Source of the DNA: Parcubacteria group bacterium
GTDB lineage: Bacteria > Patescibacteriota > Patescibacteriia > UBA11705 > JABHMO01
Assembly: GCA_043797615.1 (NCBI GenBank)
Contig: JAZDPK010000048.1
Coordinates: 22 to 64,021, forward strand
Length of the DNA: 64,000 nt
Direction of reading: 5' to 3'
A model generated the notes under the pieces. It searched no databases. It was not told the origin of the DNA and saw only the letters and a list, made by a program, of their open reading frames with translations. This document shows positions 5,687 through 51,920 of this stretch, piece by piece. The translations under genes and the position numbers were made by a program. How positions within the stretch are numbered: position 1 is the first letter of the stretch; every line of letters starts with the position of its first letter.

Positions 5687-7891
<2,205 letters not shown>

Positions 7892-43768: not shown

Positions 43769-43808
43769 TCTTGAGTAATTCGCAAGCTGAATAGTTGATT
43801 TATAAACT

Positions 43809-44333
43809 ATGCAAATCAAGAAAAATAATTTCGCATATATCGACGGCGCGAACTTACACAAGGGCGTTAAGGAGCTTGGATGGAGTTTGGATTACAAGCA
43901 TTTCAGAATATGGTTGAAAGAAAAGTATTCCGTTGAAAGGGCGTACATTTTCATCGGGCTTATCCCCGAAAATAAAAACTTGTATACTTTTTTGCAGGAA
44001 GCAGGATTCACTCTCGTTTTCAAGGAAACCACTTATGACGGCGGCGGCAAAGTGAAGGGCAATTGCGACGCGGATTTGGTGCTGAAAGCGATTGTCGATT
44101 ATTACGAGAAGCAATTCGACAACGTCGTTATTGTCGCCAGCGACGGCGATTATGCGGGATTGGTGAATTTTTTCAAATGCAAAGCGGTTTTGCGGTCGCT
44201 GATTTCGCCCAATAACAGGTGTTCTTTTCTTTTGAGAAAGCTTAATGTGTCTTTGATTTATCTGGACACGCAACGGAATAAGTTGATTTACGCCCAAAAA
44301 GAAAAAGCCCCCGATAGAGACGGAACTCTATAA
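43809..44333 (+). CDS. NYN (LabA-like) domain protein
   Basis: 174 aa. FAYIDGANLHKG...GNCDADLVLKAIVDYY...VVIVASDGDYAGLV, the Asp pattern typical of NYN/PIN-like domains. Confidence 0.75.
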   Translation: MQIKKNNFAYIDGANLHKGVKELGWSLDYKHFRIWLKEKYSVERAYIFIGLIPENKNLYTFLQEAGFTLVFKETTYDGGGKVKGNCDADLVLKAIVDYYEKQFDNVVIVASDGDYAGLVNFFKCKAVLRSLISPNNRCSFLLRKLNVSLIYLDTQRNKLIYAQKEKAPDRDGTL

Positions 44334-44430: not shown

Positions 44431-45252
44431 ATGGAAAAAAATAAAGCAATCGCCATTTTCGAAGGCAAGCAAATCCGCCGGCATTGGGACGGGGAAAATG
44501 AACTTTGGTATTTTTCGGTTATCGATGTTGTCAGAGGTTTGACGGACAGCGTTGACGCCGGCGCTTATTGGCGAAAATTGAAACAAAGATTGAAAGAGGA
44601 AGGAAGCGAGGTCGTGACAAAATGTCACGAGCTGAAATTTATGGCTAATGACGGCAAATATTACGTTTCTGACGCGGCGGACACCGAAGTTATGTTGCGC
44701 CTGATCCAATCGGTTCCATCTCCCAAAGCCGAACCCTTCAAATTATGGCTGGCGCAAGTAGGCTACGAGCGCTTGGAAGAAACAGCTGATCCGGAATTGG
44801 CGATCGATCGCGCGCTTAAAACTTATTTGCAAAAAGGGTACAGCCGGGAATGGATCAATCAGCGGTTGAAAAGCATTGAAATCCGCAAAGAGCTGACCGA
44901 CGAATGGGAAAAGCGGGGAGTGAAGCAAGGCGCGGAATTCGCGATCTTGACCGATGAAATAACCAAGGCGTGGACCGGCATGACGACGAGAGAATACAAG
45001 GGCTTGAAAGATTTGAAAAAAGAAAACCTGCGCGACAACATGACCAATCTGGAATTGGTTTTGAATATGCTGGCGGAAACGGCGACGACGGAAATTTCGC
45101 ACAAGCGCGAGCCGAAAAATCTGGATGAAAATAAAATCGTGGCGCATGAAGGCGGAACGATCGCGGGCAACGCGCGCAAGCAAATCGAAGTTAAAACCGG
45201 CAGAAGCGTGATCGTCGGAAAGAACGCGAAGCGGTTGAAAAAGAGAAATTAA
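44431..45252 (+). CDS. Bro-N domain protein (antirepressor/DinD-like)
   Basis: 273 aa. IAIFEGKQIRRHWDGENELWYFSVIDVVRGL...KAEPFKLWLAQVGYERL. Confidence 0.7.
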   Translation: MEKNKAIAIFEGKQIRRHWDGENELWYFSVIDVVRGLTDSVDAGAYWRKLKQRLKEEGSEVVTKCHELKFMANDGKYYVSDAADTEVMLRLIQSVPSPKAEPFKLWLAQVGYERLEETADPELAIDRALKTYLQKGYSREWINQRLKSIEIRKELTDEWEKRGVKQGAEFAILTDEITKAWTGMTTREYKGLKDLKKENLRDNMTNLELVLNMLAETATTEISHKREPKNLDENKIVAHEGGTIAGNARKQIEVKTGRSVIVGKNAKRLKKRN

Positions 45253-45400
45253 GTTTTAAATTATGTTCAAACTATTCAGTCGAGCGGAAGCGCCGGCGCT
45301 GGCAAACGAGGAAAAATCCTCCGCGCCGGAAAAGCCGAAAAAAATCAATCTCGAGCGCTTGCTCGACAAGAAAATGAAAATATAATAAAATAAATCGCAT

Positions 45401-47449
45401 ATGAAACAAATTTTAAGCATCATAAAAGATTCGAATTACAGTTTTTCGTTGTTTGATCAGTCGCTGGTGGATGAATTGGAAAATAAAATAACGGTTAAAG
45501 ACGGAAAACCGTATGTTATTTGCGTTATCCGAGACAAGGAAATTGTGTTAAAACCGGAGGAAGTCGTCCGTCAGCTGTATGCAATGAAGTTGATTAAGGA
45601 ATATGGCTACCCGAAAAAGCGGATTCAGTTCGAGCATTCGATAAATTTCGGCCGAGAAATCAAATCCGCTGATATTGTTATTTTTGACAAAGATCGGCCG
45701 ACTGTCGAATATATTATTGTTGAGATAAAAAAACCGAAAATGCAAGACGGCAAGAATCAGCTGCGTTCATACACGAATGCGACCGGCGCTCCGATCGCGG
45801 TTTGGACGAATGGCGGTCAAATCTCGCATTACAATCGCAAAGATCCGAATTATTTCGAGGATATTACCGATATTCCAAAAGCCGATCAAACCCTTGAAGA
45901 CGTTTTGAAAGAAAAATTCACGCTGAAAGATTTGATAATCAAAGATAAGATTCCGAATGAGGGCAAATCGCTCAAAACGATCATTCAGGATTTAGAGGAT
46001 GAAGTTTTGGCAAATGCAGGCGTTGATGTTTTTGAAGAAGTATTTAAATTAATTTTTACCAAGCTTTACGATGAAATGCAAAGTAAAAATGATAAAATGA
46101 AGATTGATTTTTATTTAGAAAATGACTTGAGCGGAGAAAATAGGGGAAATTATGACGCGATAAAAGAATCTTTGAAAAAAATGGAGTACAGCCATTTTCG
46201 AGTTTTGGAATTCAGAAATACCGGACAATCCGAGGGAGAATTAAAAAAGAAAATTCAAAAGTTGTTCGATGAAGCCAAGGTGAAATGGCCGGGGGTCTTT
46301 GAAGAAGCCAGCCAAATTCAACTAACACCTTCGCATTTATCGATTTGCGTTTCCGGTTTACAAGATATCAAGCTTTTCAATTCCAACCTGCAAATTGTTG
46401 ACGAGGCTTTCGAATATTTAATCAATAAATCGTCCAAAGGTGAAAAGGGCCAGTATTTTACGCCGCGCCATGTGATCGACATGTGCGTGAAGATGCTCAA
46501 TCCGAAAGCAGGAGAATACATGATCGACACTGCCGCCGGTTCGTGCGGTTTCCCAGTTCATACAATATTCCAAATCACCGGCCATTTGTTTCAAAATACG
46601 GCGATATCCGATGAAGAAAAAGAAAATGTCTTGAAAATTTTTGGCATTGATTTCGATGAAAAAGCCGTGCGCGTCGCCCGCACTTTGAATTTGATCGCCG
46701 GCGACGGCAATACGAATGTTCTGCATTTGAATAATCTTGATTTCGAACGGTGGAATGAAACAATCAGCAATCGCAATTGGTTGGAAGTTTACGGTGCGGG
46801 TTTGAAAAGACTGGAAGCGTTGCGCAAAAATCCTGATTCATACAAAGAATTTAATTTTGATATCTTGATGGCCAATCCGCCATTTGCTGGGCCCATAAAG
46901 GAGCCGCGAATTATATATAAATATGATTTAGGGGTTAACGAAAAAGGAAAACGCAAGCCCAAAGTCGGCCGAGATATTTTATTTATCGAAAGAAATTTGA
47001 ATTTCTTGAAGCCGGGCGGCCGCATGGCGATAGTGTTGCCGCAGGGAAGATTTAATAACACATCCGATAAATACATTCGCGACTATATTTCCGAGAAGGC
47101 GAGAATTTTGGCGGTGGTGGGGTTGAATGTTAATACTTTCAAGCCGCATACCGGCACGAAAACAAGCGTTTTATTCGTGCAAAAATGGAATGACGACAAA
47201 TCAAAAGGTCCGCTCTGTCCGAAAGAAAAAGATTATCCGATTTTCTTTGCGGTTTCGGAAAAATCCGGCAAAGACAATTCCGGTGATTATGTATTTGTGA
47301 AAAATGAAAACGGCCAGAAAAAATTGGACAGGAATAGCCACTTGATAATCGATCACGACTTGCATAACCATGGCGGAGAATTGCCCGACGGCGTGGCGGA
47401 GAAGTTTATCGAGTGGGCGAAAAAAGAAAAATTAAGTTTTTGGAGATAA
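45401..47449 (+). CDS. hsdM: type I-like N6-adenine DNA methyltransferase with N-terminal HsdR_N-like (PD-(D/E)xK) domain
   Basis: 682 aa. N-terminus: SADIVIFDKDRPTVEYIIVEIKKPK...QLRSYTNATGAPIAVWTNGGQISHY. MTase: GQYFTPRHVI, IDTAAGSCGF, ILMANPPFAG. Confidence 0.85.
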   Translation: MKQILSIIKDSNYSFSLFDQSLVDELENKITVKDGKPYVICVIRDKEIVLKPEEVVRQLYAMKLIKEYGYPKKRIQFEHSINFGREIKSADIVIFDKDRPTVEYIIVEIKKPKMQDGKNQLRSYTNATGAPIAVWTNGGQISHYNRKDPNYFEDITDIPKADQTLEDVLKEKFTLKDLIIKDKIPNEGKSLKTIIQDLEDEVLANAGVDVFEEVFKLIFTKLYDEMQSKNDKMKIDFYLENDLSGENRGNYDAIKESLKKMEYSHFRVLEFRNTGQSEGELKKKIQKLFDEAKVKWPGVFEEASQIQLTPSHLSICVSGLQDIKLFNSNLQIVDEAFEYLINKSSKGEKGQYFTPRHVIDMCVKMLNPKAGEYMIDTAAGSCGFPVHTIFQITGHLFQNTAISDEEKENVLKIFGIDFDEKAVRVARTLNLIAGDGNTNVLHLNNLDFERWNETISNRNWLEVYGAGLKRLEALRKNPDSYKEFNFDILMANPPFAGPIKEPRIIYKYDLGVNEKGKRKPKVGRDILFIERNLNFLKPGGRMAIVLPQGRFNNTSDKYIRDYISEKARILAVVGLNVNTFKPHTGTKTSVLFVQKWNDDKSKGPLCPKEKDYPIFFAVSEKSGKDNSGDYVFVKNENGQKKLDRNSHLIIDHDLHNHGGELPDGVAEKFIEWAKKEKLSFWR

Positions 47450-47453
47450 AAAT

Positions 47454-48944
47454 ATGAATGACAGAGAAATAATAAAAATATTTTTAGACACACAAGAATG
47501 GCAAACATTCGAATGTAAAAGAGCCGCCATTAAACCATCCGATTTATTGGAAACTGTTGTCGGGTTTGCAAATTCGGATGGCGGATTTATTGTTATTGGT
47601 TTGGAAGATCCATTGAAGGTTCAAGGAGAGAAACGATTACTTGGTATCAGTGAAAATGCTGATAATGTCTCCGATTTCTTGAAATTAATTGACAAGGAAA
47701 TTGAACCGCCACTTATACTGTGGAGAAAATTTGAACTCGATATCAATAATACCCAAGGTTTGGCAGACAAACTTCTAGTGTTGGAAATAACAAAGAGCAA
47801 TGATGTTCACTCATTGAAAAAGGGGGATACTTTTGTAAGAAAAGGAAGACAGAATGTGAAAATCGGCTCAACAGAAATAATGCGCCTTAAATATGAAAAA
47901 GGAGCGATTAAGTTCGAGAGTGAAAAATCAGGGATTAATTCTCTCGAAAATATAGATGATTCTCTTTTGGCTCAATATAAAATAGACACATCAAGTACCG
48001 GCTTGGATGATTGGCAATTTTTAAAGGATAATGGGTTGGCGGTCGGAACTGTCAGCAAATACGAATTAACAAAAGCAGGCGTTTTGCTTTTTGGAATAAA
48101 TCCCTCCGTTGCATTAACGAGCAAGTGCGGAATAAAAATTTCTCATTATTACGGGACAAAGCCAACATATAGCGGAAAACCCAATTTCGTAAATCGTCCA
48201 TTTACCATAGAAGGTCCTTTAATGAAACAAATAGAACAAGCTATTGAATATTTCAGAAGCATTGTTAAGAATTCACCTCCGAAACTAAGCGGCGCTTCAT
48301 TTGCTCCAACTTTTTTGATTCCAGAATGGGCATTTCAAGAAGCGATAACAAATGCAGTGATTCATCGTAATTATTTCGTGCAGGACGATATTCAAGTTAG
48401 ATTTTTTGACGATCGAATGGAGGTTGAGAGCCCCGGCACATATCCCGGTCATATTACAGTTGAAAATATTAGAGCCGAACGATTTGCTCGTAATCCTCTG
48501 ATTTTACGCACCCTGAATCGTTTTCAAAAGGCTCCTAATCTTGATATTGGCGAGGGTGTTGACCGTATGTTTAAGGTAATGAAAGACAAAAATTTATACG
48601 AGCCATTATATTTCCCGCCGACCATAAGACCGAATACGGTTTTGTTATTGCTCTTAAATCTTCATAAAATTGAAGTTTGGGATACAGTAAGCAAATATTT
48701 AGATGAAAATTATAGAATAACTAACAAAAAAACGAGGGAAATAACCGGCGTTAATGATGTTCTTAAAATGTCTCGCTTATTGCGCAGTTGGGTTGAAAAA
48801 GGCCTTTTGGAAAAGATCGGAAAGGCAAAAAAAGACTGCTACTATCGCAAGCCAGGGCAAGAGGTTCCGAGAGGTTTATTTTCAAAGGGGGGTGATAATA
48901 AAGTTGAAAAGGGCAATAAGATCAATGATTTAGCCAAATTCTAA
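47454..48944 (+). CDS. AlbA_2 (Schlafen-like) + HATPase_c_4-like putative DNA-binding ATPase
   Basis: 496 aa. TFECKRAAIKPSDLLETVVGFANSDGGFIVIGLED (AlbA_2/divergent AAA-4 pattern). ITNAVIHRNYFVQDDIQVRFFDDRMEVESPGTYPG (HATPase_c_4 pattern). Confidence 0.7.
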   Translation: MNDREIIKIFLDTQEWQTFECKRAAIKPSDLLETVVGFANSDGGFIVIGLEDPLKVQGEKRLLGISENADNVSDFLKLIDKEIEPPLILWRKFELDINNTQGLADKLLVLEITKSNDVHSLKKGDTFVRKGRQNVKIGSTEIMRLKYEKGAIKFESEKSGINSLENIDDSLLAQYKIDTSSTGLDDWQFLKDNGLAVGTVSKYELTKAGVLLFGINPSVALTSKCGIKISHYYGTKPTYSGKPNFVNRPFTIEGPLMKQIEQAIEYFRSIVKNSPPKLSGASFAPTFLIPEWAFQEAITNAVIHRNYFVQDDIQVRFFDDRMEVESPGTYPGHITVENIRAERFARNPLILRTLNRFQKAPNLDIGEGVDRMFKVMKDKNLYEPLYFPPTIRPNTVLLLLLNLHKIEVWDTVSKYLDENYRITNKKTREITGVNDVLKMSRLLRSWVEKGLLEKIGKAKKDCYYRKPGQEVPRGLFSKGGDNKVEKGNKINDLAKF

Positions 48945-48971
48945 AGCCGTTATTTTCACGAGCCTGTTTTA

Positions 48972-49022
48972 CGTGTTGTTGAATGTGAAACGAAGAAAGA
49001 GAAATTAAGTTTTTGGAGATAA
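48972..49022 (+). repeat. diverged duplicate of the hsdM 3' end
   Basis: Translates RVVECETKKEKLSFWR*, against the hsdM end EWAKKEKLSFWR*. aaattaagtttttggagataaaa is identical to 47429-47451. Confidence 0.8.
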
Positions 49023-49025
49023 AAT

Positions 49026-49727
49026 ATGAAGCCAAAAGAGAATAGCATTATCCAAGGTATAATTAAAAAAGTAGAGGAAATAAAGATTGATTTTATAGGT
49101 ACTGATACGTATGTAGTAGGCGGTGCGCTTGAAAATAGATTTTTATTCAATAGATTAGTAGAGATTATAAAAAACAATCCCAGTATTGATAAACCAAACA
49201 TTTTTTTAGATTACATCAAAATAAATTATGTTACTACGATTATTGTCGCTATCTGCAGACAAATCGACGGAGATAAAGATTCCATAAGTTTAATAAATTT
49301 GCTCTATGAAATTTATAATAACGCAGAAAAAATAACAAAAAAATGGTTTGTAGCGTCATATAAAACAATAGGAATAGTTTATGGCAATCGTGCTTTTGAA
49401 GAAAATTTTGGCAACTTAAAGCATGTTGATCCCGCTATTATATATGCTGACATAGGCAATTTAATATTTTATACAAAGAAAATAAAAAAGTTTAGGAATA
49501 AAAGAGTGGCTCACTTAGACAAAAATAAAGAAATTAAATTTGATATTAATTTTGAGACATTGAACGACGCGATTGATTTAATGGAAAAAATTGTTAAAAA
49601 ATACTATCTATTATTAACTCAATGTGAAATGGATAAGTTATTGCCAGGAAATGTTTTATGTTTTAGAGATGATAGAAGTGACGAGGAAGACATCTTCTGT
49701 GTTCCATGGAAAAATTGTAAAAAATAA
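49026..49727 (+). CDS. hypothetical protein with HEPN-like RNxxxAH motif
   Basis: 233 aa, very AT-rich. FRNKRVAHLD at codons 156-165 (nt 49494-49514) fits Rx4-6H. Otherwise unrecognised. Confidence 0.6.
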   Translation: MKPKENSIIQGIIKKVEEIKIDFIGTDTYVVGGALENRFLFNRLVEIIKNNPSIDKPNIFLDYIKINYVTTIIVAICRQIDGDKDSISLINLLYEIYNNAEKITKKWFVASYKTIGIVYGNRAFEENFGNLKHVDPAIIYADIGNLIFYTKKIKKFRNKRVAHLDKNKEIKFDINFETLNDAIDLMEKIVKKYYLLLTQCEMDKLLPGNVLCFRDDRSDEEDIFCVPWKNCKK

Positions 49728-49758
49728 CTATGCAATATTCAGTCGTAAATTATAAAAT
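49724..49758 (+). repeat. duplicate of the hsdS 5' end (35-nt exact repeat with 50492-50526)
   Basis: aataactatgcaatattcagtcgtaaattataaaa occurs at both sites. The upstream copy opens a 17-codon stub, MQYSVVNYKMVKFKRAI*. Confidence 0.85.
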
Positions 49759-49779
49759 GGTAAAATTTAAAAGAGCAAT

Positions 49780-50496
49780 ATGAATGGAAATGAATTAGAA
49801 GAAAATGTAGAAAAAATGCTAAAAAATGATGGGTGGGAAATGACCTCAGAAGTTTTTTATACTGATCCGAATACGAAAAAGCCACGAGAGAAAGATATTA
49901 TTGCGCGGAAAAGTCAAAATACTAATAACTACGACGCTGTACTATTTGTTGAATGTAAATCGATACCAAAGGCCACGAGAATATACCCAAAAGGAAAGAT
50001 GGATGATGTCGCCAATACACTTTTTGCTTATCATATCCCTTTCGCAGATATTTCAGAGATTGAGAGACATAAGCAAACGCATTTTTATCAGAAATATTGT
50101 GAATTTTTTAAAACCAAGGATGATAAAGATTTTTTGCATGTCGCGATAAATCAGAATTTACAATCTTTCAGTGCTTTTAGGAAGGATAACAAAAAAGCAG
50201 CGGTTTATTATCTATTGGTGGTTTATGATGGTAACGTCTTTTACATTGATGATAATAGCCAACAACAAGATTGTCACGGCGCGCTTGTCAGAGTAGATAC
50301 ACTAGATAATACATTCAATTTAGTTAATAAAGGATGTTTTATTGAAATAGTTTCAATTTTAGATTTTGAAAACCTTTTGAAAAAGATAGAAGAGGACATA
50401 ACGCAAATTAATCAATCAGCTTTTTTTTATCGTGATATGCACCAAAAACACATTGCAAGCAATAGAAAAATAAATAAAACTAATAGATATGAATAA
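49780..50496 (+). CDS. PD-(D/E)xK nuclease-like hypothetical protein
   Basis: 238 aa. REKDIIARKSQNTNNYDAVLFVECKS gives D39...E58-x-K60 in the usual strand context. No other motif recognised. Confidence 0.55.
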   Translation: MNGNELEENVEKMLKNDGWEMTSEVFYTDPNTKKPREKDIIARKSQNTNNYDAVLFVECKSIPKATRIYPKGKMDDVANTLFAYHIPFADISEIERHKQTHFYQKYCEFFKTKDDKDFLHVAINQNLQSFSAFRKDNKKAAVYYLLVVYDGNVFYIDDNSQQQDCHGALVRVDTLDNTFNLVNKGCFIEIVSILDFENLLKKIEEDITQINQSAFFYRDMHQKHIASNRKINKTNRYE

Positions 50497-50498
50497 CT

Positions 50499-51920
50499 AT
50501 GCAATATTCAGTCGTAAATTATAAAACGGTTATAAAAGCAGATGATTTCCGTTGGGATGGAGAATTTTTATGTTTTGAACCGCATAAAAATAAAAATTAC
50601 CGATATTTTTCAATTGGAGAAATTTTAAAGTTCGCTCAATATGGAATTTCTATTGATATGAATGAATCAGGACAAGGATATAAAATATACAGAATGAATG
50701 AAATTTCAAATATGTTTTGCGATTTTGATGTGGATAAATATGCTGACATAAATGAGCAAGAAATGAAAAAATTTGAATTGAAAAACAACGACGTGGTATT
50801 TAATCGAACTAATTCGCAAGCATTTGTTGGAAGAACGGGAATATTCAGAAAGTTTTCTGACGAACCATTTGTTTTTGCTTCATATTTGGTTAGATTTAGA
50901 CCGGATCAAAAAAAAGTATTGCCAGAATATTTAACAACCTTTTTAAATACGAAATATGGAGTTCAAGATGTTCAAAGACGCGCAAGAATTTCAATAAATC
51001 AATCAAATGTGAGTGCTTCGGAATTGGAAAAAGTTGAAATGCCATTGCTATCAATCAATTTTCAAAACAAATTAATACCATTATTTGATAAATCTTTTCA
51101 TTCCATAGTTGAGTCAAAAAAATATTATTTTCAGGCAGAACAGTTGTTATTATCTGAAATAGGTTTGTCAAATTGGGTGCCGAAACAAGACCTTGTATTT
51201 ATAAAGAAATTTTCCGAAACAGAAAAGGCTGAGCGCATTGATGCGGAATATTTTCAACCGAAATATGAGGAGATTATCGATGCTGTAAAGAAATGTAAAA
51301 ATGGATTTGTGAAATTAGGTGAAGTTGCTAAAACAAAAAGAGGTTCGTTAATCTCTGATAATCTGTACCGCGAAGGCAAGGGGATTGGATATATTCGTGG
51401 AGCAGATTTTTCAAGTGGTTTTTTAAGCAATGATAAAATGATTTACATCGATGATTCATTTAAAAAAACAAATGAAACGAAAGTTAATCAAGGAGACATT
51501 GTTTTTGCGTTAATCGGAACGGTAGGATCGTCGGCTTTGGTTGAAAAAGATTTTGATGGAGCATTCATTTCTAACAATTTAGGAAAAATTTCAGTTAAAA
51601 ACTATAATTCAACAATTTTACAGGTTTTATTTCATTCTGTTGTTGGAAAAATGTACTTTGCGAAAGAACAAACCCAAACAGCTCAACCTAAAATCTCAGA
51701 TAAGGACATTTATGATTTTATCCTTCCTAAATTTGATAGCAAAACAGAAAAGGAAATAGAAAAATTATATTTTGATTCACAAAAAGCAAAACATTTGTTT
51801 AAATCTCTGCTTGAAATCGCCAAGCGGGTAGTGGAAATGGCGATTGAGAAAGACGAGAAAGAAGCGGAAAAATGGATTGATAAAGAATTGAAACAGCTGG
51901 ATGTTAAAATAACCAGTTAA
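50499..51920 (+). CDS. hsdS: type I restriction-modification specificity subunit
   Basis: 473 aa with a two-TRD layout and a helical C-terminal spacer. Blocks such as DVVFNRTNSQAFVGRTGIF and GDIVFALIGTVGSSALV are typical of HsdS. Confidence 0.85.
   Translation: MQYSVVNYKTVIKADDFRWDGEFLCFEPHKNKNYRYFSIGEILKFAQYGISIDMNESGQGYKIYRMNEISNMFCDFDVDKYADINEQEMKKFELKNNDVVFNRTNSQAFVGRTGIFRKFSDEPFVFASYLVRFRPDQKKVLPEYLTTFLNTKYGVQDVQRRARISINQSNVSASELEKVEMPLLSINFQNKLIPLFDKSFHSIVESKKYYFQAEQLLLSEIGLSNWVPKQDLVFIKKFSETEKAERIDAEYFQPKYEEIIDAVKKCKNGFVKLGEVAKTKRGSLISDNLYREGKGIGYIRGADFSSGFLSNDKMIYIDDSFKKTNETKVNQGDIVFALIGTVGSSALVEKDFDGAFISNNLGKISVKNYNSTILQVLFHSVVGKMYFAKEQTQTAQPKISDKDIYDFILPKFDSKTEKEIEKLYFDSQKAKHLFKSLLEIAKRVVEMAIEKDEKEAEKWIDKELKQLDVKITS

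Follow-up and report, generated by a model that had tools for sequence, protein, structure and literature searches.

Copies of flanking gene ends mark the boundaries of cassettes nested in a predicted two-gene restriction-modification operon

Defence genes occur embedded in type I restriction-modification (R-M), BREX, DISARM and Hma operons (Payne, Hughes, Fineran and Jackson 2024, bioRxiv 10.1101/2024.01.29.577857). Classic cases are TgvAB in the type I operon of Vibrio cholerae VPI-2 (PMC11411939) and PrrC in EcoprrI (reviewed in PMC12707154). How such genes come to be embedded is left open by Payne and colleagues, who speak of a 'genomic sink' and whose text contains none of the terms recombination, remnant or hotspot (10.1101/2024.01.29.577857). 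Here we describe an operon in a 64,000-nucleotide (nt) stretch of contig JAZDPK010000048.1 from a Parcubacteria group bacterium (the window), in which an R-M gene (RM) and a specificity-subunit gene (S) enclose three further genes, cassettes c1, c2 and c3, and in which extra copies of the RM end and the S start, which we call relics, lie at the cassette boundaries. We read these relics as scars left when cassettes were gained and exchanged by recombination where RM meets S, retained for the translation signals they carry, with the junction acting as a recurrent landing site; we give this reading a probability of about 0.6.

Similar to the embedded genes described so far, the cassettes are genes other than R-M genes, putatively of defence type, that sit between R-M genes on the same strand and are predicted to be co-expressed, and the window also contains PDC-S13, a candidate family of Payne et al. 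judging by its PADLOC name. The locus differs from those cases in that its boundaries carry readable ends of the host genes and in that the host appears to be a two-gene fused RM+S unit instead of HsdRMS. RM, c1, c2, a short stub open reading frame (ORF), c3 and S form a single co-directional operon on the + strand, with c1, c2 and c3 nested between RM and S and gaps of 2-81 nt (Table 1). The order put forward in an earlier reading of the sequence (the original prediction), namely hsdM, c1, hsdM-end remnant, c2, hsdS-start remnant, c3, hsdS, is correct.

In what follows, block L denotes the last ~35-70 nt of RM and block R the first ~30-45 nt of S together with the 7-8-nt leader in front of them, with L' and R' for their relic copies inside the operon. 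The recurrence of the RM end downstream, as originally proposed, was borne out: 47418-47451 and 48991-49024 are identical at 32/34 positions in an ungapped comparison, and both differences are synonymous (AAA>AAG, GAA>GAG). The relic still translates as ...ETKKEKLSFWR-stop against ...AKKEKLSFWR-stop in the RM gene, again as predicted. A 24-mer core of this repeat is present at just these two sites in 64 kb at ≤3 mismatches, with 0.00 expected from shuffles. Conservation of L' is graded, the last 34 nt being 94% identical to the resident end while the preceding 18 nt mismatch at 16/18 positions when compared without gaps.

At the other side of the junction, the S start is repeated as an exact 35-mer at 49723-49757 and 50492-50526, and the match extends to 38/39 over 49723-49761 and 50492-50530; the exact repeat had been predicted, with the upstream copy placed one nucleotide too far downstream (49724-49758). 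No further copies were found in the window at the level of the full 35-mer repeat, for which shuffles expect 0. Since both copies open with AATAACT, the stop codons of c2 and c3 are the TAA inside the repeat, 2 nt before an ATG. The 17-codon stub that had been noted behind c2 is a real ORF, and its TGA overlaps the ATG of c3 (ATGA). Over its length, R' matches the S start of the type found in locus L003 at 44/46 positions, and the window's own S over 39 nt only, which is weak evidence that R' came from a foreign S allele.

To place these copies in context, we compared the RM/S junction across 80 genome loci with flanks of up to 8 kb (loci are referred to by L numbers). S followed within a few bases of the RM stop in 34 of them and was separated from it by 200-2850 nt in another 34; 4 were intermediate and 8 ended before S. 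The cargo of occupied sites is defence-like and varied, with unrelated families that include OLD-type ATPase-TOPRIM, Fic, RhuM, DUF3800, HEPN, MazF- and PIN-like genes, and none of c1, c2 or c3 was found in any of the 80 loci. The empty site that had been sought in relatives therefore exists, both in these 34 loci and in L095-L102, where an RM 87% identical to that of the window (24 contigs) meets S at an empty junction reading ...TTTTGGAAATAA ATT ATGCAATATTCAG... This essentially matches the ancestral junction predicted from the window, which we would reconstruct as ...AAATTAAGTTTTTGGA(A/G)ATAA-(2-4 nt)-ATGCAATATTCAG... As a separate observation, the RM frame of L038, L040 and L078 extends ~50 codons beyond the usual ...LSFW end into a different tail, with a PIN-like gene next, an arrangement that resembles a toxin-antitoxin pair whose first part has become fused to RM.

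We scanned 1.3 Mb of fetched loci for relics with degenerate 21-nt RM-end (L) and 23-nt S-start (R) cores at ≤3 mismatches. The operon strand gave 50 L and 42 R matches and the opposite strand 1 L and 0 R, a bias from which we conclude that the extra copies are not due to chance; nor are the cores widespread, as they would be in a generic repeat. Extra L or R copies occurred on the coding strand and at cassette boundaries only, in 11 other loci from 10 genomes, in a locus with a different RM family (L087) and in a Patescibacteria array from which RM and S have both been lost (L081/L082). By name, the loci other than L087 are L001, L002, L003, L005, L007, L012, L021, L048, L055, L057 and L081/L082. 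In L001 the extra copy lies downstream of S, ahead of a DUF3800 gene. L003 carries an array downstream of S with the order c195, PDC-S13, L, AbiU2-like gene, L, HEPN gene c154, RhuM. A 72-nt relic separates Fic and ATPase cassettes in L007; 8 nt differ from the resident end, 5 of them at third codon positions, and frame and stop are intact, as expected of a diverged functional allele. Of the side features of these two loci, the stretch from the Fic cassette to the relic in L007 (11131-11325) is AT-rich with a repeated ATATGATAATTAAAATAAT motif and then forms a GC-rich hairpin (CTGTCTGCGTGC...ACGCACAGGCAG), and a GC-rich hairpin is also inserted within the long relic of L003.

In L081 (5587-8050), and in the same form in L082 from an independent sample, a four-cassette Patescibacteria array stands without RM and S. 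Its order is L (62 nt), PDC-S13 fragment, L, c3, R.L composite, HEPN-like gene, R.L composite, HEPN gene, R (26 nt), RNase HII. The two R.L joints have different breakpoints, and the second composite (7490-7552) is an intact 20-codon mini-ORF that fuses S start and RM end (MQYSVVNYKTVKGEKLNFWK, followed by a stop). The joint TTTTTTGGA-CT-ATGCAAT in this array shows the RM stop region to be the origin of the AATAACT leader that precedes S. A (G/A)AATAACT leader is common to seven junctions of a cassette with an S start; the cassettes ahead of it differ, and the junctions lie in the window, L001, L003, L006 and L081. Neighbours vary while a relic stands at every boundary: PDC-S13-L is followed by c3 in L081, by the AbiU2-like gene in L003 and by R in the window; L stands in front of c154 in L081 as it does in L003; and the block ahead of c3 is L in L081 and R' in the window, with R following c3 in both. 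The RM/S junction is thus a hotspot, its cassettes carry copies of the junction blocks, and the same cassettes recur with different neighbours.

The recurrence of this architecture also bears on whether contigs of different strains were mis-joined during assembly. Such a chimera might be suspected because the window probably comes from a metagenome-assembled genome and no run containing it was found. However, its 34-39-nt repeats are probably below the assembler word size (a k141 label is present on some related contigs), frames, stop-start spacings and the bridge ORF are all intact, and the same architecture appears in independent assemblies, in the two samples of L081/L082 and in three runs for L007. 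We consider an assembly artefact very improbable.

Of the cassettes, c1 matches the PADLOC pAgo model (3.5e-28), and its homologues, up to 89% identical, lie in defence islands without R-M genes and without relics; at least this cassette was therefore taken up from elsewhere and did not come from another RM/S junction by shuffling. Its left boundary falls exactly at its ATG and, because its homologues share its 3' flank, the c1/L' joint can be placed at ~48967-48972. The 28 nt after the c1 stop were considered as a further RM-end relic ('HEPV' against 'ELPDGV') and ruled out, since the stretch is the conserved 3' flank of c1. c2 belongs to Pfam HEPN_AbiU2 (4.3e-10) and has homologues of 66-68% identity between a different HSDR_N plus methyltransferase (MTase) family and S, in the metagenome contigs L086 and L087. 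In L087, AAAAATTAAATTCTTGGAAATAA, an RM-end relic of the window's RM family, is still found upstream of the c2 homologue, indicating that the relic travels with c2. In L086 the junction of c2 stop and S start is identical (AAAAAATAACTATGCA), and with c2 abutting S this locus represents the state before the arrival of c3.

c3 has an invariant D39...E58-x-K60 motif and a predicted structure with a mean local confidence score (pLDDT) of 92.7. A fold search with this model returned no PDB match below E 1e-3 and no significant whole-chain match; local matches to R2 endonuclease, AF1548, MspJI and EcoRV weakly suggest that its N-terminal core resembles PD-(D/E)xK nucleases. Among its ~34 homologues, those named or located are from Patescibacteria, and some are stand-alone genes of ~240 amino acids (aa). 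The earlier proposal of cassette shuffling between loci accordingly holds in part. Cassettes with relics do recur in varied combinations, the c2 family does occupy the junction of a different RM family, and the GC content at third codon positions (GC3) does change in steps along the operon. On the other hand, the relics share variants of the resident copies and c1 was captured from outside R-M loci.

Recombinational gain and exchange would account for the window in three steps. An arrangement RM-c2-S would have come first, c1 would then have been added after the RM stop, and c3 would have been added before the S start, each addition proceeding by recombination via one conserved block and leaving a second copy of that block. 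In these events, recombination anchored by homology on one side may have been completed by an illegitimate or microhomology joint on the other, for which the ATATGAA shared by many starts is one example of a site, or the cassettes may have integrated through a single short homology. Once formed, L copies would be retained for the Shine-Dalgarno-like GGAG/GGAA they place 7-8 nt before the next ATG, and R copies for their TAA-CT-ATG stop-start coupling, seen at c2/stub and c3/S. Bridge ORFs, such as the 17-codon stub in the window and MQYSVVNYKTVKGEKLNFWK in L081, may hand ribosomes from one cassette to the next, so that the whole array would be expressed as one translationally coupled operon. 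Relic parts outside the functional ~25-35 nt would decay, and the identity gradient of L' fits selection on the signal-bearing part alone.

A bolder proposal sees in the RM-end and S-start blocks not scars alone but functioning components of a cassette system free of a dedicated recombinase, serving both as portable homology arms and as portable expression modules; we regard this as unlikely. Were it true, general recombination would excise, insert and re-assort single defence genes between operons of this widespread RM family, each new arrival would be expressed instantly, and arrays could persist after loss of the R-M genes around which they formed, as in L081. In its strongest form, RecA would repeatedly excise cassettes as circles between L or R direct repeats and reintegrate them at any L or R. 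In its favour, c1 and c3 are each flanked by direct repeats (34 and 39 nt), R.L composites are the product expected of such integration, an array without RM and S is bounded by L and R, and the same cassettes occur in different orders. Yet no excision variant or circular joint was seen, the L007 contigs of three runs having a single form with no alternative joints; the repeats are at the lower size limit for RecA-dependent exchange; breakpoints within R and L differ among joints; and rare historical events followed by selection explain the pattern equally well. An ongoing RecA cycle therefore seems rather improbable to us.

Several observations weigh against our preferred account of relics as scars of cassette exchange. 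The sequence KKEKLSFWR is found in 1/120 top RM homologues, which is the window's own gene, and CAGTCG is common to the window's three S-start copies but absent from the related S starts that were compared. The window's relics thus share lineage-specific variants with the resident copies, so local duplication or gene conversion fits as well as import; the shared rare variants are compatible with within-lineage exchange, local duplication and gene conversion alike. The relic-free homologues of c1 imply that the L copies flanking c1 arose no earlier than its capture. Nucleotide conservation in the RM 3' block (0.82-0.86) barely exceeds the average for the gene (0.78), and the block is therefore not a uniquely favoured homology arm; for the same reason, a conserved nucleotide block was rejected as the cause of the long relics that start at ~-72. 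No population variant lacking c1 or c3 was found. Searches with the locus identified no sequencing run that contains the window, and a run found via the backbone (8% of words) yielded contigs without the island of this organism. Finally, the ribosome-site and coupling roles are read from sequence alone.

One rival account is duplicative insertion in situ, in which illegitimate or microhomology joining of free-standing genes at the A-rich ATATGAA would have duplicated 35-55 nt of the junction with each insertion, much as in a long target-site duplication or a product of replication slippage, with no other RM/S locus involved and with decay or homogenization later. It would explain why the relics share lineage-specific variants with the resident copies, why homologues of c1 and c3 stand alone outside R-M loci, and why c1 has its left edge at its ATG and its right edge past its own conserved 3' flank. 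It does not account for the way c2 and PDC-S13 bring relics into other loci and into another RM family, for the longer match of R' to the L003-type S start (46 nt against 39), for the mainly third-position substitutions in the L007 relic, or for the R.L composite joints of L081 with their differing breakpoints. We also know of no insertion mechanism that gives duplications of 35-70 nt. Duplication in situ is on balance an unlikely, though by no means negligible, explanation.

Site-specific insertion of the integron or transposon kind, with the junction as attachment site, would suit same-strand, promoterless and tightly packed cassettes at one site, and a serine recombinase does lie beside the empty-site relative L095/L096. 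No integrase or transposase is encoded in the island (all seven ORFs assigned; Pfam) or around L081, however, and inverted repeats were likewise not found in the island; each boundary directly repeats a coding end, in varying length and with varying breakpoints, and does not form an inverted-repeat att site; and the recombinase of L095 flanks the entire RM-S unit, not the junction. We hold this route to be highly improbable. Two specific versions were rejected: a transposon with target-site duplication, because transposase and terminal inverted repeats are absent at the cassette ends and the duplications measure 34-53 nt, one being diverged and one matching a foreign S allele for longer; and an integron cassette array, because an integrase is lacking and coding ends, repeated directly, make up the boundaries.

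Separately, L095 (3825-5330) and L096 (3744-5330), the closest relatives with an empty site, show a unit of helix-turn-helix (HTH) gene, RM and S adjoining the serine recombinase, which is large. A polysaccharide gene cluster (Wzy_C) surrounds the unit in L095, the type of neighbourhood in which the window's operon is also found. This suggests that the whole HTH-RM-S unit may itself be mobile.

Table 1. Features of the operon and its upstream neighbourhood (window coordinates)
Feature	Position	Strand	Description
NYN-domain gene	43809-44333	+	Left edge of AT-shifted accessory island; Pfam NYN 4.8e-12, PADLOC NYN
Bro-N / PDC-S13 candidate defence gene	44431-45252	+	PADLOC PDC-S13 1.2e-132
Third relic, degenerate empty junction	45237-45282	+	RM-end 20-mer + ATG + S-start 10-mer TATTCAGTCG
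40-codon ORF MFKLFSRAEAPALANEEKSSAPEKPKKINLERLLDKKMKI	45263-45385	+	Starts at ATG of third relic; ends 15 nt before RM
RM	45401-47449	+	Stop TAA 47447-47449
Resident RM end (block L)	47418-47453	+	Last codons ...KKEKLSFWR, TAA 47447-47449, spacer AAAT; GGAG 8 nt before c1 ATG
Spacer RM/c1	47450-47453	+	AAAT
Cassette 1 (c1)	47454-48944	+	Schlafen AlbA_2 + HATPase_c_4 protein (Pfam)
c1/c2 intergenic stretch	48945-49025	+	81 nt
Conserved 3' flank of c1 (TTATTTTCAC.AGCCTG)	48945-48966	+	Common to c1 homologues elsewhere
RM-end relic L'	48970-49025	+	~53 nt; TAA 49020-49022, spacer AAT; GGAG 7 nt before c2 ATG; nhmmer 48976-49021, E 2.5e-4
Cassette 2 (c2)	49026-49727	+	HEPN AbiU2-family protein; TAA 49725-49727 inside S-start leader AATAACT
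S-start relic R'	49723-49765	+	Leader AATAACT + ATG + first ~12 S codons
Stub ORF MQYSVVNYKMVKFKRAI, then stop	49730-49783	+	17 codons; begins 2 nt past c2 stop
Cassette 3 (c3)	49780-50496	+	238 aa; no Pfam family; TAA 50494-50496
Resident S start (block R)	50492-50530	+	Leader AATAACT; S ATG at 50499
S, specificity subunit (HsdS-like)	50499-51920	+	Two target-recognition domains

The operon had been called a type I locus, and in this respect our results differ. RM, the 'hsdM' of the original prediction, is a 682-aa protein with its own nuclease domain, an HSDR_N_2 PD-(D/E)xK domain at the N-terminus (residues 52-159) fused to a gamma-class N6-adenine MTase (332-607), with Pfam values of 3e-27 for HSDR_N_2, 2.1e-33 for N6_Mtase and 4.5e-12 for Eco57I. 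Its translation contains NPPF and IDTAAGSCGF motifs. It matches MTase_I in PADLOC (PDLC03034, 7e-293), and its best PDB sequence match is RM.BsaXI, a type IIB enzyme, in the MTase region 413-598 alone (E 1.8e-17). S gave two stretches of Pfam Methylase_S and PADLOC Specificity_I (6.9e-41). No HsdR was found among the island ORFs, all of which are assigned, and no large gene besides RM and S recurs in the 80 related loci. Because the nuclease is fused within RM and HsdR is absent from the island and the 80 related loci, we read the locus as a two-gene RM+S unit with a type IIB-like architecture.

Canonical type I R-M (HsdR, HsdM, HsdS) was rejected, the M component and the S component with two target-recognition domains being present and a separate HsdR being absent from the island and the related loci. 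MADS, the methylation-associated defence system, was also rejected, with NCBIfam scores of 305.8 bits for MAD2 (cut-off 720) and 103.4 for MAD5 (cut-off 400) and no other mad genes in the island. Like the type IIB enzymes BcgI and BsaXI, the window's unit combines a PD-(D/E)xK and gamma N6-adenine MTase fusion with a separate S bearing two target-recognition domains and no helicase subunit; it differs in that the similarity to BsaXI is limited to the MTase region and the RM family is labelled as type I M in PADLOC and JGI. The family is large, with at least 7995 homologues at E≤1e-100 and 65-85% identity across many phyla, and both the RM C-terminus (...AEAFIEWAKKEKLSFWK, then stop) and the S N-terminus (MQYSIVNYK...) are conserved in it. 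Exact-protein look-up returned no record for either RM or S of the window.

Upstream of RM, we found a third relic, a degenerate empty junction that lies 115 nt ahead of where RM now starts. The PDC-S13 gene has its stop within this relic, ~15 positions short of the end of the PADLOC model. Its 18-mer AAAGAGAAATTAAGTTTT is identical to 48996-49013 and has 3 matches in the window against 0.03 expected, and its local alignment to a synthetic RM-end+S-start junction scored 48 against a null maximum of 28 (2949 samples). The island thus contains what is left of a former RM/S junction ahead of today's operon, which would imply that an earlier RM/S unit once occupied this site. PDC-S13 homologues occur in L003, L033 and L081/L082, directly after RM in L033. 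In relatives the gene is a cassette of the window's RM family, with an RM-end relic following it, as seen in L003 and L081.

A promoter-like site (45363-45391) lies around the end of the 40-codon ORF; the promoter and terminator scan of the region gave no promoters above the shuffled background. L095-L102 differ upstream of RM, where a 69-74-aa HTH controller-like gene adjoins RM in place of the 40-codon ORF. The start of the NYN gene (TAAACTATGCAAAT, 43798-43822) has the 10-mer AACTATGCAA in common with the S-start leader (AATAACTATGCAATAT), which may reflect a further relic, here where the island begins on the left, or a chance match. In composition, GC3 drops stepwise from ~0.6 in the flanking glycan genes to 0.46 in RM, 0.32 in c1 and 0.24-0.26 in c2, c3 and S. 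The gap between RM and S is 0.217, compared to a family mean of 0.10 (sd 0.057), about two sd above.

Defence genes are often nested in R-M operons, and new genes are discovered through this arrangement, with its origin left open by the surveying paper. Junction relics could be scanned for in thousands of operons, where they would reveal where insertions took place, what preceded them, which alleles served as donors and in what order events occurred. A design rule is suggested as well, by which the last codons of an upstream gene and the first codons of a downstream gene serve as reusable expression adaptors. If relics also act as recombination arms, they would provide an integrase-independent route for shuffling immune genes.

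Full-text literature searches found no published description of duplicated gene-end scars. Integron arrays resemble the window's array in having promoterless single-ORF cassettes in the same orientation at one site with short repeats between them, whereas the window lacks an integrase and attC hairpins and its repeats are direct copies of flanking coding sequence. Homology-facilitated illegitimate recombination is a known process, and capsule and O-antigen loci exchange variable cargo between conserved flanking genes. The window likewise has variable cargo between conserved genes, and its R.L, L...L and R...R arrangements would result if an anchor of homology at one end were paired with an illegitimate joint at the other. 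In contrast to capsule-type exchange, both anchors here belong to a single operon, being the ends of its two genes; each cargo item is one ORF, with its joints at start and stop codons; and translation appears to be what the scars are retained for. Embedding in R-M operons is already known, and the junction scars add to it legible footprints with a plausible role in expression.

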